DNA of 64,000 bases from contig OZ220733.1 of assembly GCA_965116875.1 (NCBI GenBank), forward strand, positions 4,384,001 through 4,448,000. The letters are read 5' to 3'. Positions 7,331-28,404 of this stretch are shown piece by piece. Each line of letters begins with the position of its first letter. Position 1 is the stretch's first letter. The notes beneath the pieces are model-generated. The model was not told where the DNA came from. It made no database searches and saw only the letters and a program-made list of their open reading frames with translations. The translations under genes were made by a program, and so were the position numbers. Source of the DNA: Candidatus Latescibacterota bacterium (lineage in GTDB: Bacteria > Latescibacterota > UBA2968 > GCA-2709665).

Positions 7331-9670
7331 ATGAAACGTATCTGTATTGTCGTGGCGATCGCTACGTGCTGCCTCTGGGCATGGCCGTCGCTTCCATCTG
7401 CCTTCCAATCCGGACCCTTCCCCGACTTTGACGAAGACGGCGTCGTGGGCTTTGCGGACTTTCTACAATTCGCCGGGAGATTCGGTTCGGCGCGTGGCGA
7501 AGAGTCGTACGACGATCGGTTCGACCTCAATGGAGATGGCTCGATCGGATTTCCGGATTTCCTGATCTTCGCGGGAAGTTTCGGGAAGGCGTCTCCGTAT
7601 GCCGGCGATGAGAACGACGTGCTTATCCCCGATGCCAACCTCCGCGCCGTCATCGCCGACAGCCTCGGCAAGCCGCGCGATGCGCCGATCACCCGGGCGG
7701 AGATGGAGACCCTGACGCACTTCCAGGCGCCGGGAGCCAACATCAGACATATTATCGGGCTTCAGTTTGCCGTAAACCTGAAGGAATTGTGGCTTCAGGA
7801 CAACGCGATAACGGATCTCTCGCCGTTGTGCGACCTCACTGAACTGACGGATCTTGTTCTCTATTCCAACAAGATCTCAGACATATCCACGCTTTCCAAC
7901 CTGGTGAATCTGCACCACCTGAATCTCAGCCACAACAAGGTGTACGACATCTCGGTGCTGGCTGAATTGACAGATCTGGGTTACCTTGGGCTTGCTGATA
8001 GCCAGATCTCGGATTTCTCAACGCTTTCTAACCTGACCAATCTGATCGGGTTGTGGATTGGCAATTCCGGTATTGCGGACCTTTCCGTGCTGGATGGCCT
8101 GACAGAGCTTAAGGAACTTGACCTTGACAACAACAACGTCTCAGATGTATCTGCACTGGCTGGACTGAGAAAACTGACTCTCCTGCGGATGTCCAACAAC
8201 AAAATCGCCGTCGCTTCCGGACTGTCCGGCCTCACCAACCTGATCGGGTTGGATATCAGCGGCACCGGCATTGCGGATCTGTCCGTGTTGGCAAACCTGA
8301 CGAAGTTGACCAATCTGAATCTCAGCGGTAATTGCATATCTGACATTACTGCACTTTTCGCCCTGACCAATCTCACACGCCTGGACCTCAGTGACAACAG
8401 AATCAAGGATTTTTCTCCATTGGTAAGGAACTCGGGTATTGACAGCGGCGACATAGTGGATACGAGGGACAATCCGTCAAGTCCCGAATCGATACAAGCG
8501 CACCTTATTGCGCTTCGAATGCGGGGCGTTAACGTGCAATACGATGACAAACCGGAATCGGTATGTATTCCAGTTCTTCCCGACGACATGTCAGTGGACG
8601 CGGGAAGCTCTCACACACTACAGGCCAATCACCTCCACGTCGATCGAGAGGGAATTCGTCCGGAAGACCAGCGTGGTCGCGTTCATGCAGTTGCCTATTT
8701 GGACTTCAATGAAGACGGTCACCTCGACGTTTTTCTTGCACCGCTGGATGATACACCGAACAAGACACCTGCTGAGTTCTACCAGAACGACGGGGCAGGG
8801 TGTTTCTCGTTAGCGACCGGTTTCTTTGACGGAAATCCACCGGGGCAGGTACACCCGAGAAAGGCTCTGCATGGGGACTTCAATGGCGATGGACGAATGG
8901 ACGTCTTCGTGCTCGGCCACGGTTACGATCAACCACCTTTTCCTGGAGAGGCGCCCTATGTGATACTCTCATCGCCGAGCGGTTACGTGCTGGGTGAAGG
9001 GCTGGACGCATACGTCGGGTTTCAGCATGGCGGCGCATCGGCCGACATCGATGGGGATGGGGACATCGACGTGTTCGTCACCCACCTGAATGCCACTGAC
9101 GGACCGTTCTTCCTTATCAATGACGGCAGTGGCTCATTTGTTCCGGATACGGATCGGGTGGAAGGTCTTGCCCATAAGGCGCTGTTTACTGCTGAATTGG
9201 TTGACGTCGACGGCGACGGTTTCCTTGATCTCCTTGCCGCAGGTCACGAGTACGATCCTCCACAGGATTTACAGACGCAGATTTTGTGGGGTGACACCGA
9301 CGGCGTCTACAGCACGGACAATGCCACGATCCTGCCGGCTGTACAAGGGCGAGGAATCGTCGTCGATGTCGACGTGAGCGACACGGACGGAGATGGCGAT
9401 AAGGACATTGTTATTAACCGGACCGGCGATGAAAGGACGTCTACATATGACGGATATTACCTGCAATTGGTCGAGCAGGTCAACAAGCGCCGCTTTGAGG
9501 ACCGAACGAAGCGGTTGCTTTCCGAGAATGAAGACGCCGAAGCCACTTGGTTCGACTGGGTCCGCATGTGCGATTGCGACTCAGATGGAGACGTCGATAT
9601 CGTGGTCGATGATGCCGCCAGAAAGCTCATCTGGAAGAACGACGGGACGGGCAGGTTTCACCGGCGGTAG
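7331..9670 (+). CDS. Secreted dockerin/EF-hand-like + internalin-type LRR + FG-GAP/VCBS repeat protein
   Basis: Signal peptide; DFDEDGVVGFADF; IPDANLRA LRR cap; ~22-aa LxxLxxLxLxxNxIxDIS repeats; DFNxDGxxD repeats. Confidence 0.92.
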   Translation: MKRICIVVAIATCCLWAWPSLPSAFQSGPFPDFDEDGVVGFADFLQFAGRFGSARGEESYDDRFDLNGDGSIGFPDFLIFAGSFGKASPYAGDENDVLIPDANLRAVIADSLGKPRDAPITRAEMETLTHFQAPGANIRHIIGLQFAVNLKELWLQDNAITDLSPLCDLTELTDLVLYSNKISDISTLSNLVNLHHLNLSHNKVYDISVLAELTDLGYLGLADSQISDFSTLSNLTNLIGLWIGNSGIADLSVLDGLTELKELDLDNNNVSDVSALAGLRKLTLLRMSNNKIAVASGLSGLTNLIGLDISGTGIADLSVLANLTKLTNLNLSGNCISDITALFALTNLTRLDLSDNRIKDFSPLVRNSGIDSGDIVDTRDNPSSPESIQAHLIALRMRGVNVQYDDKPESVCIPVLPDDMSVDAGSSHTLQANHLHVDREGIRPEDQRGRVHAVAYLDFNEDGHLDVFLAPLDDTPNKTPAEFYQNDGAGCFSLATGFFDGNPPGQVHPRKALHGDFNGDGRMDVFVLGHGYDQPPFPGEAPYVILSSPSGYVLGEGLDAYVGFQHGGASADIDGDGDIDVFVTHLNATDGPFFLINDGSGSFVPDTDRVEGLAHKALFTAELVDVDGDGFLDLLAAGHEYDPPQDLQTQILWGDTDGVYSTDNATILPAVQGRGIVVDVDVSDTDGDGDKDIVINRTGDERTSTYDGYYLQLVEQVNKRRFEDRTKRLLSENEDAEATWFDWVRMCDCDSDGDVDIVVDDAARKLIWKNDGTGRFHRR

Positions 9671-9748
9671 AGAGCGGGAGGGGATGCCGTTGTCCTGTCA
9701 TGAATGACTGATGGGTTCAGCCGACGCCTCAAGCGGTAACTTGACAGG

Positions 9749-9772
9749 TTGGGGTGGACATTCCTGTCTGTC
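9749..9772 (+). repeat. REP-like palindrome, GTGG family, copy 3
   Basis: TTGGGGTGGACATTCCTGTCTGTC preceded by CTTGACAGG. Confidence 0.7.
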
Positions 9773-9797
9773 TGCGTCGCTTTCCCACGAGCCCCAC

Positions 9798-10053
9798 TGT
9801 CATCCAGAGGACTTGCCCTGCTTGTGCTGCTTGCACTGAGCCTGTGGTCCCTGAGCTTGTCGAAGGGTCGAAGTGGCCTGCCCGCAACGTCTGCGAAACG
9901 CTCCGGTCTACGTGCGACCAGCCTGTCATGCAGGGGGCCGGGGAGGGGTCTGCAGGCCGACGTAAGGATCTACTGCAGCAGGGGATCATCTCGGAGGGGC
10001 TATCGCCGTTGGATACCAGAGAAGCAGCACGTCCGCTCCCTCCTCAACTCCGC
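9798..10053. repeat. Isolated copy of the TGTCATCCAGAG repeat module carrying nested hairpin micro-elements
   Basis: Homologous by eye to 15728-15980 and 14856-14976 (TGTCATCCAGAGGA...CAGGCCGACG-AAGGATCTA...GCAGCACGT). Confidence 0.85.
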
Positions 10054-10125
10054 TTATTATGGCAGGTCCGCCTTTCACTACCTTGAGGCGTCGATCGGGT
10101 ACTCGACGTCCCGCCTGAACAGGCG

Positions 10126-10371
10126 CTATTCGCCTCGCCGTCCCCGTCCTCTTATCCTTCGTCTTTGATCTCTGATGAGCGTGACGATTTCCGGGGTGGC
10201 GATGTCCGCATGGATCGACCGAACGTCCAATGGTGACGCGGTGGGGCGTTCCGGCACAAGGGCGTACGTCCTGCCGTCTTTTCTGCGTATCAGGACCTTG
10301 CCGGTAGACTCGGCCCTGTCCAGCACCTTCGAGAAATTCTGTCGGGCTTCCGAGTACGTATAGACGTTCAT
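10126..10371 (-). CDS. Phd/YefM-family antitoxin
   Basis: MNVYTYSEARQNFSKVLDRAE...VLIRRKDG Phd-type N-terminus; ATG at 10371 directly after the PIN gene stop. Confidence 0.88.
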   Translation of the reverse strand: MNVYTYSEARQNFSKVLDRAESTGKVLIRRKDGRTYALVPERPTASPLDVRSIHADIATPEIVTLIRDQRRRIRGRGRRGE

Positions 10372-10372
10372 A

Positions 10373-10771
10373 CTATACCTCCAGGTCGACAAGATTGACA
10401 CCAAGAGTACGTGCCAACCGGCCGAGTTTTCGGTCCAGCGTCAATAGAGGGGCGGCATGCCTCAATGCGCAATCCAGAAAGTACGCGTCGTAGGCGTAGA
10501 CGTTCTCCGCGGCCGCAATGGACATCACATTCGACATGTCGACGCTCACGTATTGAATCGGGATGTCATCCAGAATCTCCATTCCCCGCTGTGCATCCGA
10601 AACGCTTACACGACGCTGCCTGATCATAGCTGAGAAGGCATTTCCGATTTCCCATGGTATGGATCCGGGACCGATCAGAGCATGACCCGATGTGGCCTCA
10701 ATGATTGTATCTTTTTCAGGTTCTGCGACGATTACCGCGACAATTGCTGAAGAGTCGATCACAATGTTCAT
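10373..10771 (-). CDS. vapC: VapC-like PIN-domain toxin
   Basis: IVIDSS, WEIGNA, AYDAYF, LLTLDRKL acidic PIN residues; 132 aa. Confidence 0.92.
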   Translation of the reverse strand: MNIVIDSSAIVAVIVAEPEKDTIIEATSGHALIGPGSIPWEIGNAFSAMIRQRRVSVSDAQRGMEILDDIPIQYVSVDMSNVMSIAAAENVYAYDAYFLDCALRHAAPLLTLDRKLGRLARTLGVNLVDLEV

Positions 10772-10793
10772 TCCCGCCCCCTCCGATAATAAT

Positions 10794-10823
10794 CAATTGT
10801 ACAATTGTCACAAGAATTGTCAA
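10794..10823 (-). promoter_or_regulatory. Sigma70-like promoter overlapped by a palindromic operator for the TA operon
   Basis: Minus strand TTGACA-16nt-TACAAT; perfect palindrome CAATTGTACAATTG (10794-10807) covers the -10 box. Confidence 0.7.
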
Positions 10824-11038
10824 GTGCTGAATTGAGATTTGATGATCGCTGAGATTGGTGACGCAAGTACAACCGCTGAATACGAAACGGTTGCCGTCGT
10901 AGTCTGTCTGTATGTACGTCACCGAAAGTCGACGGGTACAGCGACGCCCTTCTGTCAAACGAAGTGAAGACAAGGACCTGCGTTTTCTATGGGAATGTCA
11001 ATGTGGCCAGACGATACCTCGAACGCGATCTTGACAGG

Positions 11039-11063
11039 GTGGAGCAGACATTCCTGTCCGCTC
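11039..11063 (+). repeat. REP-like palindrome, GTGG family, copy 4
   Basis: GTGGAGCAGACATTCCTGTCCGCTC preceded by CTTGACAGG. Confidence 0.75.
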
Positions 11064-11353
11064 ACAAGGGAACAACCGTGATCCGGTTTCCCGTGTCCGG
11101 AAATGCATCGTCGCACTTGCCGGCCATTGAGAGCTTTCACCAGTCGAATTCGCAGTGGAAGGACGATGAGACTGGCAGACACACCTGTTAAAAGCCGTCT
11201 CTTCCAACCGCCATCACGACATGATCCACCTGTAACCGGAGCGAGGGCAGGATGCCCTCGCTCCCGGGAACGCAAACCACACCACCGCGTGCTCATCGGC
11301 TGGACCGGACGATGTGTGCGCGTGTATTCCGTTTGAGCGTCTATCTGGAAACG

Positions 11354-11389
11354 AAAACACCCTGCTGATCGACTTTCAGCAGGGCGTTT
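11354..11389 (-). terminator. Intrinsic terminator downstream of tRNA-Glu
   Basis: Stem CCCTGCTGA/TCAGCAGGG with flanking A/T runs. Confidence 0.75.
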
Positions 11390-11407
11390 CTATGTGCGGT
11401 TTATTTA

Positions 11408-11483
11408 TGGTGACCCCGAGGGGAGTCGAACCCCCGTTTCCAGGGTGAGAACCTGGTGTCCTAGGCCACTGAACGACGGGGTC
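11408..11483 (-). tRNA. tRNA-Glu (anticodon CTC)
   Basis: Reverse complement folds as a cloverleaf: GACCCCG acceptor, CCAGG-TTCTCAC-CCTGG anticodon arm, TTCGACT T-loop, encoded CCA. Confidence 0.97.
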
Positions 11484-11502
11484 ACCTTGTCAAATCGGGC
11501 GA

Positions 11503-11531
11503 AATCTACCCAAATCGGCCCATTTTGTCAA
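11503..11531 (-). promoter_or_regulatory. Sigma70-like promoter of tRNA-Glu
   Basis: Minus strand TTGACA-17nt-TAGATT. Confidence 0.65.
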
Positions 11532-11644
11532 GGGATACCGGTTTTTCGCGGCGTCGCCTCGATGTACATTTCGAACCGAACCCTTCTGTGCCTTTTGTGC
11601 TTTTTTTGTGGCAAATAAAACGGCTTTGTCTTTTCGAAATGAGA

Positions 11645-12016
11645 TCAGTCTCTCGGCGGCACGGCGCACAGGAAACTCAGGGGCTCGTCCCCGGTATTTT
11701 CGAACTGGTGCTGCTCGTTCGGCGGAATGTACACGATGTCTCCCGGGCCGATTTCGTACATCTCCCATCCCATCAACAGGCGGGCGGTGCCCCTGAGGAC
11801 GTACACGCCGTGGTCGTGGTCGTGACGGTCGAAGGAAGTCTGTCCTCCGGGCGCGATCTCGTAGTACCGCATGCCGAAGTTGACGGCGCCGTCCCGCTTG
11901 CCGATGACGACCTGCCTGCTGCCGCCCACCGCGCCGCCCATGTCGTAGGTCTCGACTTCGACGCCTTCCCACGCGTAGTTGCCCTGTTCTCCCGTAAAGC
12001 GATGCAGAACGCCCAT
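11645..12016 (-). CDS. Cupin-domain protein
   Basis: APGG...HDHDHGVYVLRG and GDIVYIPPNEQHQFENTG cupin motifs. Confidence 0.9.
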   Translation of the reverse strand: MGVLHRFTGEQGNYAWEGVEVETYDMGGAVGGSRQVVIGKRDGAVNFGMRYYEIAPGGQTSFDRHDHDHGVYVLRGTARLLMGWEMYEIGPGDIVYIPPNEQHQFENTGDEPLSFLCAVPPRD

Positions 12017-12044
12017 GGAAGCCTCTCATGTAACCATAGCGCGA

Positions 12045-12090
12045 CCCTTCGACCCTTCGACAAGCTCAGGGACCGCAATCTCAGTGAGCG
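12045..12090 (-). repeat. Two-level nested hairpin micro-element
   Basis: Reverse complement reads CACTGAGATTG[CGGT-CCCTGAGCTTGTCGAAGGG]TCGAAGGG. Confidence 0.85.
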
Positions 12091-12152
12091 GCTCGGGATC
12101 GGCGGACCAGGGATGCTGGATACCTGCCCTCGACGTCACTCAACCGGAACAT

Positions 12153-13232
12153 TTACATGAAGTTCCTGACGCCGCTGCCGTGGAGTTCGGAGATACGGGC
12201 GGCGGTCTCTTCGTCGAAGCCCACCTGGACCAGTTCCTGAATGCGCTTGTTGTGCATCGTACTGTAGAGGTCTCGCACGAGGCCGCGGCCCTTTTCGATC
12301 TGTTCGGGCGAGGACCCGCCGCCGGCGAGCGTCATCATCGCCTTCAGCACGAAGGGACTCGCGCCCGAAACCTGCTGCAGAAAGGCGGTTCGTTTCTCCG
12401 CCGCCTGTGCGAGCCGGCTGATGACTTCCGGTCGCTGCTGGACGTGGTACCCGATGTGCGAGAGGCCGTAGCCGACGTGACGGCCTTCGTCTTGCCGGGC
12501 GAGTTTGAAGACCCGGGCCGTGACGGGGTCCGGCGACACTTCCTCGAGAAACCTGAGTAACTCCATGAACGTGCCTTCCCCCAGCACGTGGAGAAGGAAC
12601 GACGCGTCCGTGAAGTCCTCCTGGGCGAGCAGGCTTTGAAGCGACCACTCCGTGGCCGAGGAGACGTACTGCAGCCCGCCGCCGTTGGCCAGCGCACGCT
12701 TGGTGAAGACTTCCACGTGCCTGGCCTCGTCCATCACCTGGCTGGAAAGAAACAGGATGACTTCGGAAAAACACGGGTCGATGCGCCCGATGAACTTCGC
12801 GGGCAGGTACAGGGCCAGGTATTCGTTCTGGATCATGAACGTACAGATCTGGCAGACCGCGCGTTCCAGATCTTCCTCGAGTTCCGGCAGGTCGCGCCAG
12901 GGGATATCCGTCGTGGCGTTCCATTGTCCCTGTTTGGCCTGTTCGACCAGTTCGGCGATATTCTCGGCCCAGACCTCGGTCTTCTGAACGATGCCGAAGT
13001 CGAATTTAGGGGTCTTTGGGTCCACGACCGAGCCCCGCTGCGCCAAACCGTGGTTGGGAGGCGCCCGGTCCGGAACGACGCCAGGACTGCCCACGAGACA
13101 GTCAGGAAGGAAAATGCCCCGGTCGTCGCGCGGCGGCACCCTGATGCCCCAGTCGGGGTCGCCCCAGGCGGAGGTATCCGGGAGATTTGGGTCCACGATT
13201 CGATGCTCCTCTTTTGTACTATCGTGCTTCAA
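12153..13232 (-). CDS. Ferritin-like di-iron carboxylate protein
   Basis: QNEYLA...DEARH and LGEGTF...DEGRH, two ExxH ligand sets. Confidence 0.85.
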   Translation of the reverse strand: MKHDSTKEEHRIVDPNLPDTSAWGDPDWGIRVPPRDDRGIFLPDCLVGSPGVVPDRAPPNHGLAQRGSVVDPKTPKFDFGIVQKTEVWAENIAELVEQAKQGQWNATTDIPWRDLPELEEDLERAVCQICTFMIQNEYLALYLPAKFIGRIDPCFSEVILFLSSQVMDEARHVEVFTKRALANGGGLQYVSSATEWSLQSLLAQEDFTDASFLLHVLGEGTFMELLRFLEEVSPDPVTARVFKLARQDEGRHVGYGLSHIGYHVQQRPEVISRLAQAAEKRTAFLQQVSGASPFVLKAMMTLAGGGSSPEQIEKGRGLVRDLYSTMHNKRIQELVQVGFDEETAARISELHGSGVRNFM

Positions 13233-13238
13233 CGGGAT

Positions 13239-14405
13239 TTATCGCCCGTTGTTGAGAACCAGCTTGACGAAGTCGCCGAAGTCGGTCGTGTCGAAGGTCC
13301 TGAACGAAGTCAACATCGATGGCGTCCACTCGTCGTGCCAGATCCAGGCGGTCCATCCAATATTCCGGGTCTTGCAGAAGTCGACCAGGGGCATGGCGTA
13401 TTCCCGCCTGGTTCTCTCGGGATCTTCCGAATGACCGTAGCCCCATTCGCCCAGGAAGACCGCATCGGTTTTATCCAGATTGAAGAGTACGCCCTTCCAC
13501 GCTTCGCCCTTCCAGGGGTACGGATGCGTCTCGTACACGACGTTGGGCCGGTCCACGGGATCGTCCAGGGCGCCGCTGAGGTCGTATCCCCAGTCGATGC
13601 CGGAAACCAGGACGAGCGCGCGGGGATCCACGGCGTGGATGACGTCGACAAGTGACTCGGCGACCGGGCGCCATTCTTCCCAGGTGATAAACGCGGGTTC
13701 GTTGAACGTGCCGTATATGACATGCGGCAGGTCGCTGTACCTTCGGACGATTGCGTCCAGCCCCTCGATCGCCAGTGACAGGTCGGGGTTGTACGGATTG
13801 CCTCGCCACGGGTGTCGATACCCCCAATCGGGGTGTTCCGTCTGCCCGGTGAGCGGGTTCCCGTGCGCGTGCCAGCCAAGAAAGACGTAGACGCCGCGCC
13901 GCTGCCCCCAGTCGACGATCGGGTCCACGAACGCGGGCAGATAGTCCCGGTACCGTTGCCAGAGGTCGGGGTGAATGGGCACGCGGATGACGTTCACGTT
14001 CCACTCGTCCGCCAGAATGTCAAGGGCCTCCGTCCCGTTGCGGCGGGCGGCGTGAAGAAAGTACGGGTCGATGACGGCAACGCCCCGCAGCACCACGTCC
14101 ACGTTCTGCCCGAATGCGTCCGCAAAGGCCAGAAAGTCGGCGAAGTCGACGTCGCCGCTGTCGTCGAGGTCGTATTCAGCCTGGCTTGTGCCGAAGGCTT
14201 CCGAAAACAGAAGAAAGTCCGAAAGGTCCACCCGCCCGCCGCCGTCGAAGTCCGCATCGGCTGCCTTCGCGCTGACGATTCTGTGTCCGTCCACCCGCAG
14301 TCTCGAAAGGCTTTCGGCGGCCCCCACAAGGGTTGCCGGAAACGACAGGGCCAGGATCAGAATGGAAACGACGATGCTTCTGGATTTCCGGACTTTCATG
14401 GACAT
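13239..14405 (-). CDS. Secreted glycoside hydrolase family 5 with inserted dockerin/EF-hand-like module
   Basis: NVIRVP, FNEP acid/base, HPY, FLGEWG nucleophile, GWTAW; signal peptide. Confidence 0.88.
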   Translation of the reverse strand: MSMKVRKSRSIVVSILILALSFPATLVGAAESLSRLRVDGHRIVSAKAADADFDGGGRVDLSDFLLFSEAFGTSQAEYDLDDSGDVDFADFLAFADAFGQNVDVVLRGVAVIDPYFLHAARRNGTEALDILADEWNVNVIRVPIHPDLWQRYRDYLPAFVDPIVDWGQRRGVYVFLGWHAHGNPLTGQTEHPDWGYRHPWRGNPYNPDLSLAIEGLDAIVRRYSDLPHVIYGTFNEPAFITWEEWRPVAESLVDVIHAVDPRALVLVSGIDWGYDLSGALDDPVDRPNVVYETHPYPWKGEAWKGVLFNLDKTDAVFLGEWGYGHSEDPERTRREYAMPLVDFCKTRNIGWTAWIWHDEWTPSMLTSFRTFDTTDFGDFVKLVLNNGR

Positions 14406-14450
14406 TCCGGGTTCGCTCGCGAGTCAATTTCGTCACTCGTTCGCAAAGAC

Positions 14451-14976
14451 TGTCATCCAGAGGAGGCCTGCGCGCGACGTCGCCGAAACACATCCGGTCC
14501 ACGTGAGAACAGCCTGCCATGCAGCGCAGGCCGACGAAGGATCTACTGCAGCATCGGTTCATCATCACGCGGTTTGCACGTTGCGACACCGACGAGGCAG
14601 CACGTCCGCCAAGACTGTCATCCAGAGAAGGCCGAAAAGCAGGCGATGGGTCCGCGCACAAGTTCGTCTGCGAAGGGCATGTACTCCACGTCCAATCGAG
14701 AAGACGGGAGATTCTTCGCTCCGCTCTGAATGACATGACTTTCAATTGCCATTAGTAAATCGCTTCCTTCAAGTGTTCGCCTGGACTGTTGTGCTGAGAA
14801 GGCAGGCGCGCTCAGAATGACATGTTGGCCGATAGCCAGGCGCGTTGCTTCCCACTGTCATCCAGAGGAGGCCCCCCAGGCCGACGAAGGATCTAATGCG
14901 GCATGGTATTGTCCCAGCGCGATTTGTACGTGGCGATACCTGAGAGGCAGCACGTTCGCTTCCTGCTACGACTCCG
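14451..14976. repeat. Left cluster of TGTCA...TGACA palindromic repeat modules
   Basis: TGTCATCCAGAG at 14451, 14616, 14856; CTCWGAATGACA at 14724, 14811; inner IR CGAAGGATCT (14535) / AGATTCTTCG (14709). Confidence 0.9.
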
Positions 14977-15039
14977 CTCAATGAGACGAAGTTCGAACAA
15001 TACAAGCGTGGGCATATCTGACAATTATCCGCAAACCAC

Positions 15040-15321
15040 CTACCAATCTATGGAAAGGTCTCCCATGGCCGGATTGGCACGATTTATCAATTCGAGTTTT
15101 TTCTGTCGACTCCAACCCTTCAGTTCCTTCTCTCTCGAAATTGCTCGGTGTATGTCAGATGTTGTTTCAAAGTACACCAGCCTATTCATCCGGTACTTGC
15201 TTGTGAACCCTGCAGAGAGCGTGTGTCTGTGTTCATAAACTCGTCGTTTGAGATCGTTGGTTACACCAATATATAACGTTCCACTCCGATTTGTCATGAT
15301 GTAGACGAAGTATTGGTTCAT
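15040..15321 (-). CDS. Stand-alone GIY-YIG nuclease (YhbQ/UPF0213-like)
   Basis: YFVYIM...LYIGVTNDLKRRVYEH...AISREKELKGWSRQKK; visibly lower GC than neighbours. Confidence 0.95.
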   Translation of the reverse strand: MNQYFVYIMTNRSGTLYIGVTNDLKRRVYEHRHTLSAGFTSKYRMNRLVYFETTSDIHRAISREKELKGWSRQKKLELINRANPAMGDLSIDW

Positions 15322-15363
15322 CGAATGTTAGAATTATGGGATTGAACGACGGTGCGCCCACCA

Positions 15364-16031
15364 CACATCCGCCGAGATTGCCATGTTGAGAAAGCCGCCA
15401 GGCAGGCGAAGCGTCCGCGCACAAGTTCATCCGCCAAAGGTCTGCGGGACACGTACTGCCCGGAAGACGGGAGATTCTTCGCTGCGCACTGAATGACATG
15501 TCCTGCAATGACCATCGGCGAAATGTATCCTTCACACATCGGCGCGTACAGTTATGCAGCAAAGGCCTGCGCGCTCAGAATGACATGTTTTGCAATAACT
15601 ATTGGCGAAATGTAACGGCCAAACCTTCGCCGATACTGTCATCCAGAGGACTTGCACTGAGCATGTCGAAGTGCCCTTCACGCTCTGAATGACACGTTGG
15701 CCCATAGCCAGGCGTGTTGCTTCCCACTGTCATCCAGAGGACTTGCACTGAGCTTGTGGTCCCTGAGCCGTTGTCCTGCTTGTGCTGAGCCTGTCGAAGC
15801 AAGCCTGCCGAAGGATTGTCGAAGGGTCGAAGTGGCATGCGCGCGACGTCGGCGAAACACATCCGTTACACGTGAGAGCAGACTACCTTGCAGAGCAGGC
15901 CGACGAAGGATCTACTGCAGCATCGGTTCGTCCCTGAGAGAATTTCACGTGGCGACACCTCAGAGGCGGCACAAACACGTCCTTCGCAGAATGGAAGTGA
16001 CGGGAGGTTCTTCGCCGCGGCCAGAATGACA
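15364..16031. repeat. Right cluster of TGTCA...TGACA palindromic repeat modules, including a four-level nested micro-element
   Basis: TGTCATCCAGAG at 15637, 15728; ...GAATGACA ends at 15498, 15585, 15694, 16031; 15364-15498 is a 135-bp diverged direct repeat of 14601-14735. Confidence 0.9.
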
Positions 16032-16173
16032 GGCTGCTCTTAATCATGCCAGCGCGACCTCTCTGCGAAAGATAGGAACAAAGCCGGCGTCGAGCAAGGC
16101 CGAAGGGTGAATTGCGTCGCTGATGCGTCGACATACGGGTCCCGAAATGTGACGGTCGAGTCACGGAAATATC

Positions 16174-16202
16174 TTGTAAGCCCCGTCGGTTGGCGTTATA
16201 TT
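16174..16202 (+). promoter_or_regulatory. Possible sigma70 promoter of the ABC operon
   Basis: TTGTAA-17nt-TATATT. Confidence 0.4.
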
Positions 16203-16278
16203 TGAAGCTTTTGTGCGGACCTGCGCAAAGACCGCTCTGTCTGTCCGGCGCAGCCATGACGGAAACGGAGACTGCTTG

Positions 16279-17265
16279 ATGCTGAAATATATCGCATGGC
16301 GAATCCTGATGATGATTCCCACGCTCTTCGCCATTTCGATCGTGTCGTTCCTGATCATCCAGCTTCCGCCCGGAGACTTCCTCACGTCGTACCTGGCGCA
16401 ACTCACGTCGATGGGGGAAACGGTGAGCGAGGAAGTCATCGAGGCGCTCCGCGCGCGCTACGGGCTGGGCAGTCCGGTCTACGTCCAGTACTGGACGTGG
16501 ATAACGGGCATCGTCACCCAGGGCGATTTCGGGATGTCCCTGCTGTGGGGCAGGCCGGTGAGCGAGCTGTTGTGGGAGCGGGTCAGCCTCACGGTGATGG
16601 TGAGCGCGAGTTCGGTGCTCTTCATCTGGGTGGTCGCGATACCCATCGGCATCTATTCCGCGGTGCGGCAATATTCCATTGGCGACTACATCTTCACGTT
16701 CCTGGGTTTCCTCGGGCTGGCCACGCCGCCGTTCATGCTGGCCCTGATCGCGCTGTGGATCGTCTTCGTGTCCACCGGCAGCGTACTGGTGGGGCTCTTC
16801 TCACCGGAATACATCGACGCGTCCTGGTCGTTCGGCAAGGCGTTGGACCTGCTTGCGCACCTGTGGATTCCGATGGTGATTCTGGGCACCGCGGGGACGG
16901 CCGGAACAATCCGCGTGATCCGCGCCCAGATGCTGGATGAATTGCACAAACCCTATGTGGTCACCGCCAGGGCGAAAGGCGTTTCGGAACTGAAGCTTCT
17001 CTTCAAATACCCGGTGAGGATCGCCCTGAATCCCTTCTTCAGCACCCTGGGCTGGCTGCTGCCCCGGCTGATCGCCGGTGAGATCCTGGTGTCCATCGTG
17101 CTGAATCTGCCCACCACCGGGCCGCTTCTGCTGGGCGCACTCACCAATCAGGATATGTACCTGGCCGGGAGCTTCATGCTGATCCTGAGTACATTGACCG
17201 TGATCGGGACGCTGATTTCGGATATTCTGCTCGCCTGGGTGGATCCGAGAATCCGCTACTCATAG
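16279..17265 (+). CDS. Opp/Dpp-family ABC transporter permease (OppB-like)
   Basis: LPPGD, YVVTARAKG EAA loop, DPRIRY end; start chosen at MLKYIAWR. Confidence 0.93.
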   Translation: MLKYIAWRILMMIPTLFAISIVSFLIIQLPPGDFLTSYLAQLTSMGETVSEEVIEALRARYGLGSPVYVQYWTWITGIVTQGDFGMSLLWGRPVSELLWERVSLTVMVSASSVLFIWVVAIPIGIYSAVRQYSIGDYIFTFLGFLGLATPPFMLALIALWIVFVSTGSVLVGLFSPEYIDASWSFGKALDLLAHLWIPMVILGTAGTAGTIRVIRAQMLDELHKPYVVTARAKGVSELKLLFKYPVRIALNPFFSTLGWLLPRLIAGEILVSIVLNLPTTGPLLLGALTNQDMYLAGSFMLILSTLTVIGTLISDILLAWVDPRIRYS

Positions 17266-17371
17266 ACATCCGGTAATCCGGTAGAATGAACAGGAGTCGA
17301 TTAAGATCGCTACGGAACCGCAGGACAGAACACGCTCGGAGAATCCGCTACCGCGGAAGTCGATAAGGGAT

Positions 17372-18538
17372 GTGGTCGGGAAGCTGCGTAAGAACGGATT
17401 CCCCGGATTTCGTCGTCGCCGGCAGGGCCCGCGATCCGGCGAGGAGTCCGGGGCGAAGGTGCTTGTGGCTTCCCAGTGGCGGCTGATGTGGTGGAAGTTC
17501 CGGAAGCATCAGCTGGCGAAGATCGCCGGCGCGGTCCTGATTCTCTTTTATCTGGTGGCTGGATTCTGCGAGTTCGTGGCGCCGCACGATCCGCACCGCC
17601 TGAATACGAAATATATCCATGCGCCTCCACAAAAGGTCCGATTCTTCGACGCCGCGGGGGCTGTTCATTTCTGGCCCTTCGTGTACCGGCACGTACAGCA
17701 GCGCGACCCCGTCACGCTCCGGCTCTCGTATCACGAAGACCACTCCGAACGTTTCCCGATACGGTTCTTCGTCCAGGGTGATCCATATACGTTGTGGGGG
17801 TGGATCCCCATGCAGCGCCACCTGATCGGTCTCGACAACGGGGAGCGCCTGTTCCTGCTGGGGGCGGACCGGATGGGCAGGGACCTGCTTTCGCGAATCG
17901 CTTACGGGGCGCGGATCTCCCTGTCGATCGGTCTGATCGGCATTGCCATCAGTTTCGTGCTGGGACTGATCATGGGCGGCATCTCCGGCTATTTCGGAGG
18001 GAGAATCGACGACGTGATCCAGCGGCTGATCGAGTTCATCATGGGCATTCCGGGCCTGCCGCTCTGGATGACGCTCAGCGCGGCGCTGCCGCCCGACTGG
18101 CCGATCATCCGCGTCTATTTCGGTATTACGATCATCCTGGCATTTGTGGGTTGGACCGGGCTGGCGCGGGTCGTGCGCGGTCGGTTTCTGGCGTTGAGGG
18201 AAGAGGACTTCGTGATGGCCGCGCGCCTGGGCGGCGCCCGCGAGAGCCGGATCATCGCCAAACACATGGTGCCTTCGTTCCTGAGTTATATCATCGCCGC
18301 GCTCACGCTGGCGGTGCCGCAGATGATCCTGGGCGAGACGGCGCTGAGCTTCATCGGGCTGGGGTTGCGTTCGCCGGCCATCAGCTGGGGGGTGCTGTTG
18401 CAGGACGCGATGAATATCCGCGCGGTGGCGCATTTCCCCTGGCTGCTGCTGCCGGGCGCGTTCGTCATCGTCGCGGTGCTGGCATTCAACTTTCTGGGGG
18501 ACGGGCTGAGAGACGCGGCCGACCCGTACTCCAGGTAG
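17372..18538 (+). CDS. Opp/Dpp-family ABC transporter permease (OppC-like)
   Basis: LLGADRMGRD, FVMAARLGGA, FNFLGDGLRDAADP. Confidence 0.93.
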   Translation: MVGKLRKNGFPGFRRRRQGPRSGEESGAKVLVASQWRLMWWKFRKHQLAKIAGAVLILFYLVAGFCEFVAPHDPHRLNTKYIHAPPQKVRFFDAAGAVHFWPFVYRHVQQRDPVTLRLSYHEDHSERFPIRFFVQGDPYTLWGWIPMQRHLIGLDNGERLFLLGADRMGRDLLSRIAYGARISLSIGLIGIAISFVLGLIMGGISGYFGGRIDDVIQRLIEFIMGIPGLPLWMTLSAALPPDWPIIRVYFGITIILAFVGWTGLARVVRGRFLALREEDFVMAARLGGARESRIIAKHMVPSFLSYIIAALTLAVPQMILGETALSFIGLGLRSPAISWGVLLQDAMNIRAVAHFPWLLLPGAFVIVAVLAFNFLGDGLRDAADPYSR

Positions 18539-18547
18539 AAGGGATTT

Positions 18548-19549
18548 ATGGATCCATCGGTTCTGCTCGACGTCCGCCATTTGCGCGCACACTTCTTCTC
18601 CGACGAAGGTACAGTGCGGGCCGTGGACGGCGTGGATTTCCGGATCATGAAGGGAGAGACGCTGGGCGTGGTGGGAGAAAGCGGCTGCGGCAAGAGCGTG
18701 ACCGCCCAGGCCATTCTCCAGATTCTGCCCAAAAACGGGCGGATCGTCTCGGGTGAAGTGCTGCTGCAAGCCAACGGGAAGGTCGTCGACCTGGCGAAGC
18801 TGAGGCCGAACGGCAGGGAGATCCGGAATATCCGCGGCAAGGAAATCGCCATGATGTTCCAGGAGCCCATGACCTGCCTGAGTCCGGTCCATACCATCGG
18901 GAACCAGATCGAGGAGGCCATCCGGCTGCATCGGAGCGCGGACCGGAAGGAAGCGCGTGAAATCGCCGTCGACATGCTGCGCAAGTGCGGAATCCCGGAG
19001 CCGGAGCGGCGGGTGGACGCCTACCCCCATCAGTTGAGCGGTGGCATGCGGCAGCGGGCGATGATCGCAATGAGTCTGTCCTGCCGGCCGCGTCTGCTGA
19101 TCGCCGACGAGCCCACCACGGCGCTGGACGTGACCACGCAGGCGCAGATTCTGGATCTGCTGAAGGCGCTGCAGGAGGAAATCCATACCTCCATTATGAT
19201 GATTACGCACAATCTCGGTGTGGTGGCGGAACTGGCAGACCACGCGATGGTGATGTACCTGGGCAGGGTCGCCGAGTTCGCCCGGTGCGAGACCATATTC
19301 GACGATCCAAAACATCCGTATACCCGCGCCCTGCTGAAATCCATCCCCAGGCTGGGACGCAAGGCGAAGGAAGGACTGCTGTCCATCGAAGGATCGGTGC
19401 CGAATCCGTACGAGTTGCCCAGGGGATGCATGTTTCATCCGCGTTGCCCGGACCGGATCGACGGCGTCTGCGATCGGTACGAGCCGGAGTTGACAATGAT
19501 CGGTTCCGAGCACGGCGTGAGTTGTTTCCTGTATTCCGACCCGAACTGA
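18548..19549 (+). CDS. Opp/Dpp ABC ATP-binding subunit (OppD-like)
   Basis: [25 protein letters not shown]. Confidence 0.95.
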
Positions 19550-19688
19550 CATGGGTGGACAGGATAAACAGGATGAAAGGCGATAGGCCTGACACACACG
19601 ACATTTGCCTGACGAAAGCGATGAATCTACAGATAAGGAATCACGGGACGTCATAAAGGCCTCACCGTTTCCATCGCTTGCCGAAACG

Positions 19689-19711
19689 TGGTCATTGAGC
19701 TTGTCGAAATG
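19689..19711 (+). repeat. Solitary hairpin micro-element
   Basis: TGGT-CATTGAGCTTGTCGAAATG (CAT/ATG arms). Confidence 0.8.
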
Positions 19712-19922
19712 CCAGTGTTCCGCGATACGTTCGGCGCGTACATGGAGTTCTTCACCGACCCTTCGAAAAGCGAACCGGCCGCAGGCTCAGCGATCTGCAC
19801 CAAAATCGGGCGCGTTTCTGGCCGCGCGACCCGGCGACAGAATCCTGCCAACCTGCTTCAGAATTAGAAAGCCTGAGCCTGCAACGTCGCATGAAGCCAA
19901 TCATCCGCGAAGAAAGAAGACC

Positions 19923-20951
19923 ATGTCCGATAGCAATTCCGTACTCCTGGACGTGAAGAACCTCCGGAAGTACTTCCCCATCACCGAGGGGTTTCTCAAA
20001 CGCGTGGTGGGGCAGGTGAAGGCCGTTGACGGCGTCAGTTTCGCCGTGAAGAAACAGGAGACGCTGGGCCTGATCGGCGAGAGCGGGTGCGGAAAGACAA
20101 CGGTTGGCAGGAGCATTCTGCGGGCAATCGAACCCACGGACGGCGAGGTGCTCTTCGAGGACGAGGGAACGATGGTCGACGTCTGCCGGTTGTCACCCAG
20201 GGAGTTGAGGACGTTCCGCAGACATATGCAGATGGTGTTTCAGGATCCGTATTCGTCGCTGAATCCCAGGATGACGGTCTTCGACATCGTGGCCGAGCCG
20301 CTGGTTGTGAACCGGATCTCCCGTGGGGCCGAACTGGAGGACCGGGTCGCGGAACTGCTCAGGGTCGTCGGTCTGGATCCGCAGTTCATGCGCCGCTATC
20401 CTCATGCGTTCAGCGGCGGCCAGCGCCAGCGGATCGGCGTCGCCAGGGCCCTGGCGCTGAACCCCAGGCTGATCATCGGCGATGAACCCGTTTCGGCGCT
20501 GGACGTGTCGGTCCAGGCGCAGGTGTTGAACCTGCTCCAGGAACTGCAGGAGCGGATGGGGCTCACGTATCTGTTCATTTCCCACGATCTGGCGGTCGTG
20601 GAGCACATCAGCGACCGGGTCGCCATCATGTACGTGGGGCAGATCGTGGAACTGGCAGACGAGGAGACGTTGTTCGCCACACCGAAACATCCCTATACCG
20701 AAGCGCTGCTTTCGGCCGTCCCCAAGCCCGATCCGGCATACAGGAAACGGAAGATCCCGCTGCAGGGTGAGGTGGCCGATCCCGCCAATCCGCCGTCAGG
20801 GTGTTATTTCCACCCCCGCTGCCCGTACGTGGAGGACGTGTGCCGGGAGGAATCGCCGGAACTCGTCAACGTCGCACCGGCGGATGCAGACCCGCATTTC
20901 GTCCGCTGCCATTTCAGCGACACGCTGAGTCTGGTCGGCATCGAAGCATGA
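19923..20951 (+). CDS. Opp/Dpp ABC ATP-binding subunit (OppF-like)
   Basis: [24 protein letters not shown]; start chosen at [11 protein letters not shown]. Confidence 0.95.
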
Positions 20952-22879
20952 GAGTCTTCCACAACATACGGTGCCACAAAGTGGGCATCCTGGCGAATCC
21001 AGTCATCCTGCTCGCGTGGTTGTGTTCGCCGGTCGCACCTGACGTGCGGGCTTCCGGCGTTACGCTGAATGAAGCGCCGATGCTTCGTGAACGTGTTGCG
21101 GCAGGAGCGCTACCGCCATTGCGGGAGCGGTTGCCGGAGGCGCCGGCGGTGGTGCGGCCCGTGGAGCGGATCGGCCGGTACGGCGGGACCTGGCGTCGCG
21201 TGCACATGGGCATGCCGGACCGGGCCGGGTGGATGCGGCTGACCTACGATCCGCTTCTTCGCTGGTCCAGGGACTACGCGAGGGTGGAGCCCAATCTCGC
21301 CCACGCCTGGGAGGTTTCGGAAGACGGCCGGGAATTCACCTTCCATCTGCGAAAGGGGATTCGCTGGTCCGACGGGGCGCCGTTCACGGCTGACGACTAC
21401 ATGTTCTGGTACGAAGACGTGATCCTGAACGACGACCTGAATCCCGTCAAGCCGAGCTGGCTCTCGATTGCGGGTGAACTGGGCGTTGTCGAGCGCGTGG
21501 ACGACCATACCATCCGGTTTCGTTTCGTGAAGCCGAACGGCGTGATCCTGCAGTGGCTGGCCTCCTGGACGGACATCGTTGCCGGTCCGCCGCCGAAACA
21601 CTATCTCAAGCAGTTCCACCCCAGCTACGTTTCGAAGGAGAAACTGGACGCCGTCGTGGTCGCCGAGGGGTACGACACCTGGATGGCGTTGTACGATACC
21701 AAGAGCATTGCGTTTCTGAATCCGGACCGGCCGGTTCTGTGCGCATGGCAGGCGAGGACCGGAGCGGACGCGGCCATCTTCATCGCGGAACGCAACCCGT
21801 ATTACTGGAAAGTGGACCCGGCGGGCAACCAGCTTCCCTACATCGACCGGGTGGAAATGACGCTCGTACAGAGCGCGGAGACGGTCACGCTGAAGGCCAT
21901 CGCAGGCGAGATCGATATGCAGAGCCGGCGGGTCGAGTTCATGAATTACCCGCTGTTGATGGAGCATCGGGAGAGCGGCGGTTACCGCGTCCTTCGCTGG
22001 AAGCCGGCCACGACGGGGCAGGGCACCGTGTATCTGAATCAGAACTACACCCACCAGGACCCGGTAATGGGGGCACTGCTGAGGAATCGACGGTTCAGAA
22101 GGGCGCTGTCGCTCGGGATCGACAGGCGTCAGATCATCGACCTCTTCTACATGGGCGTCACCGAACCCAGGCAGGTGGTCCCGTATATTGATGAATTGCA
22201 TGGCGTACCCAGTACCGATACACTGTACGCCACGCATGATCCGGACCGGGCGAACCGTATTCTGGATGAGCTCGGGCTGGACAGGCGGGACGGCGCGGGA
22301 TACCGGCTGCGCCCCGACGGAAAGAGGCTGAAATTCACCATCGCGGGATTCACGCCGGGTACGGCATACGTGGACGTGGCGGAATTGCTGGCCGCACAGT
22401 GGACCGCGCTGGGCATCCAGTCCACCGTCAAACCCGAAGACGTGGCGCTGTGGGTGACGCGCGCCACGGCCGGCGAACACCACGTCTCCGTATACGCGGC
22501 GTCGGGCGGATTCCGACCGCTGATGGATCCCGTGTGGTTCTTCCCGTCGGCGTCAACGGCATACTGGGCGCCGCTCCACGGACTCTGGTACAGCAGCGGC
22601 GGCAGGGCGGGAGAAAAACCCACCGGGGAAATCGCCCGCATCGTGGAGATCTACGAGCAGGCAATGACCACGATGGACGAAGACGAGCAGGTGGCGCTCG
22701 TGAAGCAGGCCGTGCGGATGCACTCGGAAAACCTCTGGCGAATCGGCGTGTGCGGCGGGTTTGACCAGGTATTCGTGGTCAAGAACGACTTCCGCAACGT
22801 CCCCGAAACCGGTCTGGGCGATAACCCGCTGCTCACACCGGGCTACACCCATACCGAGCAGTATTTCTTCGATCGGTAG
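20948..22879 (+). CDS. Family 5 ABC substrate-binding protein
   Basis: EAPML...[40 protein letters not shown]; ATGA overlap with upstream gene. Confidence 0.93.
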
Positions 22880-27134: not shown

Positions 27135-28391
27135 ATGGACGAACTTTCAACCAACCGGCCGATGACGGCGCGCAGGGAAATGGTGCTGCGGGTGGGGCAG
27201 GGCGAGGGCGACCTGCAGGGGACCGACGACAAGGCGCTTCAGGCCGGCGCGGACTATCTGAGGCGGATTGGCGGCGGGATTCTGCGGATTTTGCCCGGGG
27301 TGTACACCATGCGCAACGCGCTCTATCTGCATCCGAATCTGACGGTTCGGGGAGAGGGTGAAGCCACGGTGCTGAAAAAGGCGCCGGGATTCAAAACGGA
27401 TCTGGTGCGGGACTCGGACTGGTACGAGGCGCGCGTGGCCGTCCGGGACCCGGAAGGGTTCGGTGCGGGGTGCGGCGTGATGCTGCGGGCGTTTCGCGGC
27501 GGAGACGGGCGGATGGAGGTCGTGAAAGACACCGTTACGGCGGTGGAGGGCAACCTGGTTTCGCTGAGCAGGCGGATCTACAAGAACATGTGGCTGGAAG
27601 AACGCGCGACGCTGGCAACGGTTTTTCCAATCCTGACGGCGGAGGAAGGCGTGCACGACGTCCGGGTTGAGGACCTGGTGCTCGACGGCAACCGCGATGA
27701 AAACGAGGAGATAAACGGGAACTATTCCGGAGCGGTGTTCCTGCAGCGCTGTCACAGGTACCGGTTCACGAACGTAACCGCACGGAACTACAACGGGGAC
27801 GGATTCAGCTTTCAGATCTGCGACGACTTCGTCTTTGAGAGCTGCGTGTCGCAGCAGAATGCCAATCTGGGTTTTCATCCGGGCAGCGGGTCGCAGCGGC
27901 CGGTGTTCCGGGACTGCCGATCCACCGGCAACAGCCAGGGCATCTTCTTCTGCTGGGGGGTATCGGACGGGCTTGCTGAGCGTTGCATCTGCTCGGACAA
28001 TCTCGACTTCGGCATTTCCATCGGGCACAGAGATACGGACAACCGGATCCGGGACTGCAGCATCGAGCGCAACCACAAGGTGGGCGTGCTTTTTCGGGAG
28101 CCCCAGTCGGAATTCAGAGGCGCCCATCGAAACGTCCTGGACTCCTGCCGCATCCGGGACAACGGATTTGCGGCCGAAGGTACGGGCGTGGACGTTCTCG
28201 GGGAGACGCATCAGGTCGAGATACGCAACTGCCGGATCGAAGACAGCGGCGACGGCAGGCAGAAAACCGGTATACGCATCGGCGGGCGGGCGAAGGAGAT
28301 TGTGGTCGACGGGAATCAGTTCCGGAACATGGAGGAAAACGTGAGGATGGAAGGCGTCCGGGAGGCAGCGCTGACCGGAGCCGCTCCCTGA
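27135..28391 (+). CDS. Right-handed parallel beta-helix protein (pectate-lyase-like fold)
   Basis: DDKALQAGAD..GGG.L.ILPGVY cap; repeated NxxxG stacks. Confidence 0.85.
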   Translation: MDELSTNRPMTARREMVLRVGQGEGDLQGTDDKALQAGADYLRRIGGGILRILPGVYTMRNALYLHPNLTVRGEGEATVLKKAPGFKTDLVRDSDWYEARVAVRDPEGFGAGCGVMLRAFRGGDGRMEVVKDTVTAVEGNLVSLSRRIYKNMWLEERATLATVFPILTAEEGVHDVRVEDLVLDGNRDENEEINGNYSGAVFLQRCHRYRFTNVTARNYNGDGFSFQICDDFVFESCVSQQNANLGFHPGSGSQRPVFRDCRSTGNSQGIFFCWGVSDGLAERCICSDNLDFGISIGHRDTDNRIRDCSIERNHKVGVLFREPQSEFRGAHRNVLDSCRIRDNGFAAEGTGVDVLGETHQVEIRNCRIEDSGDGRQKTGIRIGGRAKEIVVDGNQFRNMEENVRMEGVREAALTGAAP

Positions 28392-28404
28392 GCATGTCGA
28401 AGGG
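28382..28404 (+). repeat. Solitary hairpin micro-element overlapping a stop codon
   Basis: CGCT-CCCTGAGCATGTCGAAGGG; its TGA (28389-28391) terminates the beta-helix gene. Confidence 0.8.

Follow-up and report, generated by a model that had tools for sequence, protein, structure and literature searches.

How does a hairpin unit of ~23 nt come to lie within a copy of itself, four levels deep? The question is raised by positions 15742-15834 of a 64,000-nt stretch of DNA (positions 4,384,001 to 4,448,000 of contig OZ220733.1, forward strand; hereafter the window). The genome that contains the window, G000, is closed, has 5,453,092 bases and comes from a genus of Candidatus Latescibacterota. How the shortest bacterial repeats, such as REP (repetitive extragenic palindromic) sequences and the small dispersed repeats (SDRs), originate and multiply is still unsettled. 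A first-pass annotation, made from the letters of the window, had described the nest and taken its units to be very small mobile or templated elements that target their own structure without target duplication. The observation of a four-deep nest was confirmed and the inference drawn from it was supported. The anatomy of the nest, the genome-wide regularities of its unit family and the presence/absence of exactly 23 nt at orthologous sites are established. In the reading that we prefer, with a probability of about 0.5, these are non-autonomous insertion units of 23–24 nt, which an enzyme acting in trans would mobilise.

A unit was described by a grammar: a leader of 3–6 nt followed by N3-TGAGC-N-TG-N-CGAA-rc(N3), rc being the reverse complement, with further units allowed between any two positions. 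Parsed with this grammar, 15742-15834 gave a single tree of depth 4 with 0 mismatches at every level, as the annotation had claimed. The tree is CAC[11: tggt-CCC[8: cgttg-TCC[5: cttg-TGC]]], in which units are named by their 5′ arm, leaders are in lower case and each number is the unit position preceding the child. By direct reading, the letters of the nest are, in order, cttgCACTGAGCTTG tggtCCCTGAGC cgttgTCCTG cttgTGCTGAGCCTGTCGAAGCA AGCCTGCCGAAGGA TTGTCGAAGGG TCGAAGTG. The four levels are as follows.

15742..15834, + strand: level 1, CAC unit with leader cttg (15742-15745), split after position 11; 5′ half CACTGAGCTTG at 15746-15756, 3′ half TCGAAGTG at 15827-15834
15757..15826, + strand: level 2, CCC unit with leader tggt (15757-15760), split after position 8; 5′ half at 15761-15768, 3′ half TTGTCGAAGGG at 15816-15826
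15769..15815, + strand: level 3, TCC unit with leader cgttg (15769-15773), split after position 5; 5′ half TCCTG at 15774-15778, 3′ half at 15802-15815
15779..15801, + strand: level 4, intact TGC unit TGCTGAGCCTGTCGAAGCA (15783-15801) with leader cttg (15779-15782)

The nest could be an assembly artefact of a repeat-rich region, which we consider extremely unlikely. Short-read unitigs matched 15717-15784, spanning the four 5′ halves, with 0 differences in two runs of two studies (X1 and X2), and X1 unitigs matched 15807-15918, spanning all 3′ halves, also with 0 differences. The 22 nt between them (15785-15806), which speak for an artefact, were bridged by no listed exact unitig, because the repetition of this innermost core is too high. 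As X1 is possibly the source sample, the independent support is that of X2 and concerns the 5′ part only. Runs X3 and X4 contained only a small share, and the X3 pieces had many differences. The exact unitigs on either side of the innermost core, and the same architecture at other loci and in other genomes, argue that the nest is real. Joints in the reads that might pass for alleles, for example 15741 to 15896 with GGCCCC between, were rejected as paralogous empty copies.

The unit family and its rules of nesting

A strict regular expression found 156 exact units on both strands of the whole genome. Their arms were complementary in 129; in 2000 shuffles of the 3′ arms the number averaged 36.8 and never exceeded 54, so the arm covariation noted in the window extends genome-wide. 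There were eight arm types among them (CCC 62, CAT 26, TGC 13, CAC 11, TCC 10, CGC 4, CGT 2 and GAT 1). The base pair just outside the 3-bp arms was complementary in only 8/156 units, indicating that the stem is sharply limited. The commonest leaders were CTTG (32), TGGT (24), CGGT (20), CGCT (17), CCTG (15) and CGTT (8); CGTC preceded three units.

With 0 mismatches the parser recovered 125 outermost trees, 41 nests and 182 units from G000. Allowing up to one mismatch per unit, these became 149 trees, 63 nests and 246 units, with 86, 43, 13 and 7 trees of depth 1, 2, 3 and 4, respectively. The reversed genome gave 0 trees at 0 mismatches and one tree at up to one mismatch: the nests are not due to chance. 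Most sites (119/149) were outside crude gene calls, which span 80% of the genome, and 30/149 were within crude open reading frame (ORF) calls. Nests spawn spurious ORFs and make intergenic regions change fast. A natural series of nesting stages was seen at G000:C1:1778000-1790100 (L192), where tandem paralogues of a MacB/FtsX-like permease (~790 aa) each have the same repeat end on their 3′ side. These ends carry 0, 1, 2, 2 and 2 unit levels, with 3 counted by eye at 1790027.

Nesting followed strict rules. The 97 child breakpoints fell after positions 5 (22), 6 (5), 8 (17), 9 (11), 11 (39), 17 (2) and 18 (1), and none of the 97 was at positions 12–16. The position depended on the type of child: TGC children were at position 5 in 21/21 cases, CAT children at 11 in 18/19, TCC children at 8 in 10/11, and CCC children at 11, 9 or 8 (21, 11 and 5) in 37/38. 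CAC children were at position 6 within TGC in 5/5 cases, as a block that lacks one base. One type of child was found in hosts with different arms, TGC for example within TCC, CCC, CAT and CAC, and six hosts each had two children (positions 5 and 11). Around 158 intact units, each of the 225 host solutions had the child on the strand of its host, with 0 opposite. The annotation's proposal that the unit targets its own structure is borne out by these regularities, the hosts being always of the same hairpin super-family.

Among the 63 nests there were 43 distinct architectures. The block xGGT-CCC[8:cgttg-TCC[5:cttg-TGC]] recurred in four different G000 hosts, the window nest included. With three inner levels available as a ready-made block, the nest may need one or two events instead of four, and it could be a CAC unit that received one three-level block. 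Decayed nests with halves deleted were found at 9797-9880 of the window and at G000 2235388 and 3249742.

With respect to folding, nearest-neighbour energies of single units were between 0 and −1.1 kcal/mol; this model credits G.A pairs little, and its result neither proves nor disproves a hairpin. Since the predicted energy is negligible, the term hairpin rests on arm covariation and not on predicted stability. No Rfam 15 family matched the nest (only a tRNA was found in 8000-21000), the best match in 15620-15860 being sR17 with 13 bits, below its gathering score of 36. The tRNA gene (RF00005, 59.5 bits) is at 11411-11483 on the minus strand, ~550 nt from a minus-strand nest at 12045-12090. 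Readings of the unit as a K-turn, hammerhead, loop-E, attC or CRISPR element were dropped: the unit has neither a 3-nt bulge adjoining G.A pairs nor a CUGANGA...GAAA core or R-box, and a spaced array was likewise lacking.

These results bear on the possibility that selection maintains the nests as structured modules of RNA or DNA, for example arrays of protein-binding hairpins in which nesting builds a functional multi-hairpin fold. An invariant 13-nt core with covarying arms across phyla and the strict strand relation of child and host would suit such modules. Against them, the orientation of units in G000 showed no bias with respect to adjacent genes (31/26 and 17/13), there was no Rfam match, and the fold was no better than that of shuffled sequences. 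Moreover, presence and depth at a given site varied between sister species, and insertions at position 5 break the putative G.A pairs of the host itself. Selection for such a module is an unlikely origin of the nests.

Orthologous sites and host repeats

Eleven places of G000 were compared with congeners. One (5347441) had no alignable relative. At five places the relatives lacked the whole element or had other repeats instead. It was absent at 3242927, 1347965, 5351258 and window position 12045, where a ~100-nt block was missing from the same intergenic site in 5/5 alignable relatives. The same outer element was present in a relative at different depth at four places: (a) at window position 19693 the CAT unit had depth 1 in G000 and G012, and G014 had CATTG[cctg-TGC unit]AGC..., i.e., a 23-nt TGC child after position 5; (b) at G000 5334604 a tggt-CCC child at position 11 was found in G008 and in neither G000 nor G005; (c) at G000 5339819 the innermost cttg-TGC child was present in G000 and missing in G004; and (d) at G000 3249742 the element had depth 1 in G003 and G014, and G000 carried two further levels.

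Pairwise alignment gave a single gap of exactly 23 nt in (a), (b) and (c) (G014 vs G000, G008 vs G005 and G000 vs G004, respectively). The flanks of G008 and G005 in (b) had two differences in ~105 aligned bases, so the event is recent. In (a) the gap has fixed boundaries that allow no sliding, and neither flank is repeated, which indicates that there was no target duplication. The absence of a target-site duplication, already noted in the annotation, thus holds for exact 23-nt gaps without repeated flank at three orthologous sites. Filled and empty orthologous alleles, which the annotation had proposed to compare, were found in the sense that these three sites differ by one 23-nt unit; none was clean for the window nest.

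In a one-locus tree rooted at its midpoint, G014 grouped with the G000 clade with G012 outside, and G003 grouped with G000 with G014 outside. Given this grouping, (a) and (d) are read as gains, with the extra unit in one tip lineage. For (b), where that fork of the tree is open, G008 would read as a gain by the likeness of its flanks. We infer that the 23-nt differences are gains.

The opposite direction, in which deep nests are the ancestral full-length repeat and shallow forms arose by exact deletion of inner hairpins, appears quite improbable. Unbalanced nests with lost halves (9797-9880; G000 2235388 and 3249742) and sub-nests copied as blocks are compatible with it. Yet the child boundaries have no direct repeats that could guide an exact loss of 23 nt, the extra unit was in one lineage in 3/3 polarisable orthologous cases, and 43 architectures with varied child combinations and two-child hosts do not fit one ancestral form.

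In the window, the nest sits immediately behind the left end of a host repeat resembling a MITE (miniature inverted-repeat transposable element). The host repeats and the other unit sites of the window are listed below.

15726..16036, + strand: MITE-like host repeat of ~310 nt, left end ACTGTCATCCAGAGGA, right end ...CCAGAATGACAGG
15635..15699, + strand: palindromic short copy of the host ends with one un-nested unit
15651-15673, + strand: this un-nested unit, cttg + CACTGAGCATGTCGAAGTG, the whole unit being cttgCACTGAGCATGTCGAAGTG
14449..14468 and 14854-14873, + strand: empty paralogous host sites, ...CCAGAGGA/GGCC
9797..9880, + strand: unbalanced nest in another host copy
12040..12100, − strand: degenerate three-level nest within a ~100-nt block
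19689..19711, + strand: single CAT unit, tggt + CATTGAGCTTGTCGAAATG
28382..28404, + strand: single CCC unit with leader cgct, in a looser hairpin ...GGAGC/.../TCGGCGCAGG

The ~310-nt host repeat has inverted ends, and paralogous copies of it were found at 14449-14737 and elsewhere. Such repeats make up about 1.8 kb around the nest, flanked by a GH5-like gene and one for an ABC permease. In the unbalanced nest a CCC unit and a TGC unit are represented by their 5′ halves and lack the 3′ ones; a balanced CAC[11:tggt-CCC] follows at 9834-9875. The sites that the annotation had listed were all found: the empty host sites at 14451 and 14856, the one-level unit at 15651-15673, the nests near 9830-9875 (the CAC[11:tggt-CCC] just described) and 12045-12090 (minus strand), and the CAT/ATG unit at 19693.

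At the nest locus itself, the block 14477-16017 was replaced in G014 and G008 by a 38-nt palindrome made of the two ends of the host repeat. In these two genomes (L003 and L006) the palindrome actgtcatccagagga...gcgctcagaatgac takes the place of the 1.55-kb block of MITE-like repeats (window 14449-16036). The replacement makes the 310-nt repeat look as if it had grown from a small palindrome by internal additions. G005 had a single CAC unit whose left flank matches the copy at 15635-15699 and not the nest, and it was not counted as an empty allele. A locus of a Latescibacterota congener was syntenic with G000 at 83–88% identity. In general, intergenic sites carried different elements in different species.

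Two other repeats were recorded. A ~170-nt repeat (G000:C1:3245723-3245893; L149 4723-4893) had dozens of copies, 94–98% identical, in each of five congeners, and was much better conserved than the surrounding genes. Window 2758-3227 is tandemly repeated (period 102/204 nt, 3.9 copies, 75–79% matches) and is probably a repeat-protein gene.

Proposed insertion and its alternatives

In the preferred reading, a unit would consist of a leader of 4–5 nt and 19 nt made of three variable bases, the core T-GAGC-N-TG-Y-CGA-A and the complement of the three. Units, with or without children of their own, would be copied into a resident unit of the same super-family on the same strand. Each sub-family would have its own entry point, after position 5, 8, 9 or 11, within the loop or the 5′ half, and the join would be exact and without target duplication. 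The substrate may be the folded single strand of the host unit, its stem consisting of the three variable pairs, a T-A pair, probable tandem G.A/A.G pairs and, next to a loop of 5 nt, a closing G-C pair. The activity acting in trans would recognise the fixed 13-nt core. Repeated insertion would produce nests, which would then be copied as blocks and decay by small deletions. The distribution of the family is of the mobile type, with units in 14/14 congeners, patchy blooms, species-specific intergenic sites and a location mostly outside genes.

Several observations weigh against this reading. No inserting enzyme was found. RAYT-like genes (REP-associated tyrosine transposases, Y1 family) are present in the genus, but units flanked them in 0/7 loci of the relatives, the sole unit near these seven loci being ~1 kb off (L148). 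The single RAYT-like gene of G000 (G000:C1:2123471-2124073; L001 1195-1797) scored 33 bits for NF047646, with a cut-off of 80. It has an in-frame TGA, compared with an open frame in the relatives, and a different palindrome beside it. Nor did Y1 genes track the core among five genomes: G065, with 351 copies, had no PF01797 match, and G022 and G059, with 1–2 copies, had one. RAYT/Y1 was accordingly rejected as the mobiliser, on the lack of flanking units and on a presence that does not follow core abundance. The closed genome had no RVT_1 match. There was also no strand bias by replichores defined from GC skew (27 +/24 − and 49 +/49 −), though inverted pairs may mask such a bias.

Further points against it concern the events themselves. 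Within-population presence/absence polymorphism was not seen, in unitigs that cannot show it. The predicted folding energy of the whole nest was negligible and no better than that of shuffles (z +0.6 for DNA, +1.4 for RNA). The polarity of the differences relies on a single-locus tree with a midpoint root, and the patchy presence of whole outer elements suggests recombination between species. Many nests are block copies, so that their counts are not independent events. Finally, leaders track the type of host, with cctg, cgtg or cccg in CAT hosts and cttg in CCC and TCC hosts, a correlation that would equally come from descent or conversion.

The RAYT-like gene of G000 lies within a short tandem repeat, and inverted copies of the other palindrome family, which had 47 + 37 regular-expression matches genome-wide, flank it. 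The cumulative GC skew of G000 was lowest at 2.76 Mb and highest at 4.70 Mb, so that the two arms differ greatly (1.9 and 3.5 Mb). This implies asymmetric replichores or a skew that is a poor guide, and it weakens the strand-bias test. A search for REPtron-like genes between inverted units returned just ordinary ones: MacB/FtsX permeases, a leucine-rich repeat protein, GH5 and an ABC permease. The inserting activity is probably neither a Y1/RAYT transposase nor a reverse transcriptase.

The lack of an association with Y1 genes or with a replication strand would suit a reading without any dedicated element, in which nests arose by template switching or short-tract gene conversion between paralogous hairpins. 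Hairpins would stall or be cut in replication, and repair or copy-choice would be templated by a paralogous unit that bears a child. A hairpin nuclease acting 5′ of the loop could cut such hairpins, and no breakpoint was outside the loop and the 5′ half. Unit positions 8–11 are identical with the leader CYTG, leader/child/position combinations recur, leaders correlate with host type, and the core blooms in phyla without an obvious common transposase. The junction with the MITE-like host shows a loss or overlap of 1 nt (filled ...GAAGGG/GCCTGG vs empty GA/GGCCTGG). Conversion is nevertheless a doubtful alternative, though the most serious one. The left homology at position-5 insertions is just TG, and the host arms differ (TGC is found in four host types). 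Hosts also retain the letters of their sub-type right next to the child, as a TCC host does with its C at position 12. Conversion would, in addition, leave the origin of the first nest of each kind and the constant orientation unexplained.

If the nests are the work of insertion units, these exact pieces of 23 nt are among the smallest insertion elements known in bacteria. The genus holds a readable record of them: a fixed 13-nt core with a 3-bp clamp, fixed insertion points, gains of 23 nt and nests that keep the events.

Distribution and comparison with known repeats

Exact CCC units numbered 24–64 in each of the 14 congeners and 0–5 in other genera of the family. The 13-nt core TGAGCYTGYCGAA had 41–162 copies per genome in the genus, with 0–3 in the reversed control. 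Among 120 other genomes of the phylum it bloomed in single species (G024 53, G093 53, G054 59, G064 115 and G065 351 copies). The distribution was patchy, as in G024, whose 20 sampled congeners had 0–3 copies. Beyond the phylum, the exact CCC 19-mer was found in at least 120 loci (L022-L141) of many phyla, including metagenome-assembled genomes (MAGs) of the candidate phyla radiation, with ~35 estimated by chance for the whole collection. Among the matches listed, the 8-kb loci hold 237 trees, also with other covarying arms (GGC, TGG, GTC and more), and true nests at position 11 with 4-nt leaders occur in one Pseudomonadota MAG and one Binatia MAG. A depth-3 tree in L030 was rejected as a tandem array.

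The core also had 57–153 copies in the genomes of five cultured strains of three phyla, with 0 in the reversed control: Sphingomonas, Microbacterium, Moraxella, Sphingopyxis and Microlunatus (L126, L025, L137, L073 and L061). Its abundance in cultured bacteria makes the mechanism testable at the bench. No publication on the 13-nt core, in either orientation, was found by title, and the REP sequences in the supplements of PMC3733652 may bear on earlier cataloguing. Searches likewise found no literature on nested repetitive extragenic palindromic insertions in hairpins, and nothing by title on such palindromic repeats in the Latescibacter literature. In the short-read assembly of G004, contigs C3 and C313 end where G000 (3249715-3249800) has a nest, indicating that the units break short-read assemblies.

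Given this spread, we speculate that the 19-nt unit might be a pan-bacterial self-targeting module without an element-encoded enzyme, whose copies are placed into the loops of other units by the ordinary replication/repair machinery as it acts on the folded G.A hairpin. This is an improbable but consequential idea: recursive growth from a ~20-nt seed would then be a general route to REP-like and MITE-like families, and such an enzyme-free 19-nt module would be the smallest mobile DNA known.

The SDRs of Nostocaceae seem to be the closest precedent, by which tiny nested repeats would not be unprecedented. Those of Nostoc punctiforme, as Elhai reportedly described them in 2008, are hairpins of 21–27 nt with compensatory changes, nested in their own copies at exact insertion positions. 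They are said to have been proposed as the smallest mobile elements, with an RNA intermediate, and nesting in copies of themselves is reported to be a defining feature of SDR1 and SDR4. PMC4390886 states that SDR5 inserts precisely between the third and the fourth base of HIP1, the highly iterated palindrome of cyanobacteria, and PMC5861425 reports no SDR-like repeats outside Nostocaceae among HIP1-rich cyanobacteria. The window family resembles SDRs in its size of 23–24 nt, in its covarying arms (129/156 complementary vs 36.8 in shuffles, eight arm types) and in its self-nesting (63 nests, depth up to 4). It differs in belonging to a Latescibacterota genus and not to a cyanobacterium, in targeting its own hairpin at positions specific to the sub-family, and in having a 13-nt core that is high-copy in many phyla. 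Whereas an RNA intermediate has reportedly been proposed for SDRs, G000 offers no RVT_1 match. The comparison with SDRs covers their described structure and behaviour.

A wider class for comparison is that of REP/REPIN-RAYT systems and CGTC-tagged REPs. REPs are described, in the text of PMC3733652 and PMC3116915, as short extragenic palindromes with an unpaired terminal tetranucleotide, often in inverted pairs and patchily distributed. According to the same text, CGTC-tagged REPs have the tag CGTC, TGTC or CCTC, stems starting with A-T and loops of 4–5, occur without a dedicated transposase, and some REPs lie within other palindromes. Self-nesting is not described for REPs in the text of either source. 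Like REPs and REPINs (REP doublets forming hairpins), the units of the window family are short, high-copy and mostly extragenic imperfect palindromes (246 units in 149 places). The ends of the host repeat (TGTC + AT..., inverted pairs) resemble CGTC REPs as far as the text description goes. In contrast to REPs, the stem of the unit has only three variable pairs around a fixed 13-nt core, and of the tags of the two REP super-families CGTC precedes just 3/156 units and GTAG is absent from the 15 commonest leaders. Unlike in REP-RAYT systems, neither the RAYT-like gene of G000 nor those of the seven loci in relatives were flanked by units of the family.

Single-strand ('peel and paste') transposition of the IS200/IS605 type, with its miniature derivatives, makes no target duplication and depends on the recognition of a hairpin, and cleavage involves a short stretch located 5′ of the foot of that hairpin. 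The units share with these the lack of target duplication and a strand specificity relative to the target structure. They differ in having no replication-strand bias and, among the five genomes, no correlation with Y1, and in being a single 19-nt hairpin instead of two distinct ends. Bacterial MITEs, of which nested ones exist, are 70–300 bp long with terminal inverted repeats, according to the text of PMC3733652, and the annotation had rightly placed the 23-nt unit below their typical size. The terminal repeats of MITEs measure 15–30 bp, and their insertion duplicates the target site. Like MITEs, the units are non-coding, high-copy and intergenic, with presence/absence between relatives; unlike them, they measure 23 nt, have inverted repeats no longer than 3 bp and make no target duplication. 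On these comparisons the window family appears to behave like SDRs or REPs, and we claim no membership in a named family. What is new is the pan-bacterial core and the readable rules of nesting.

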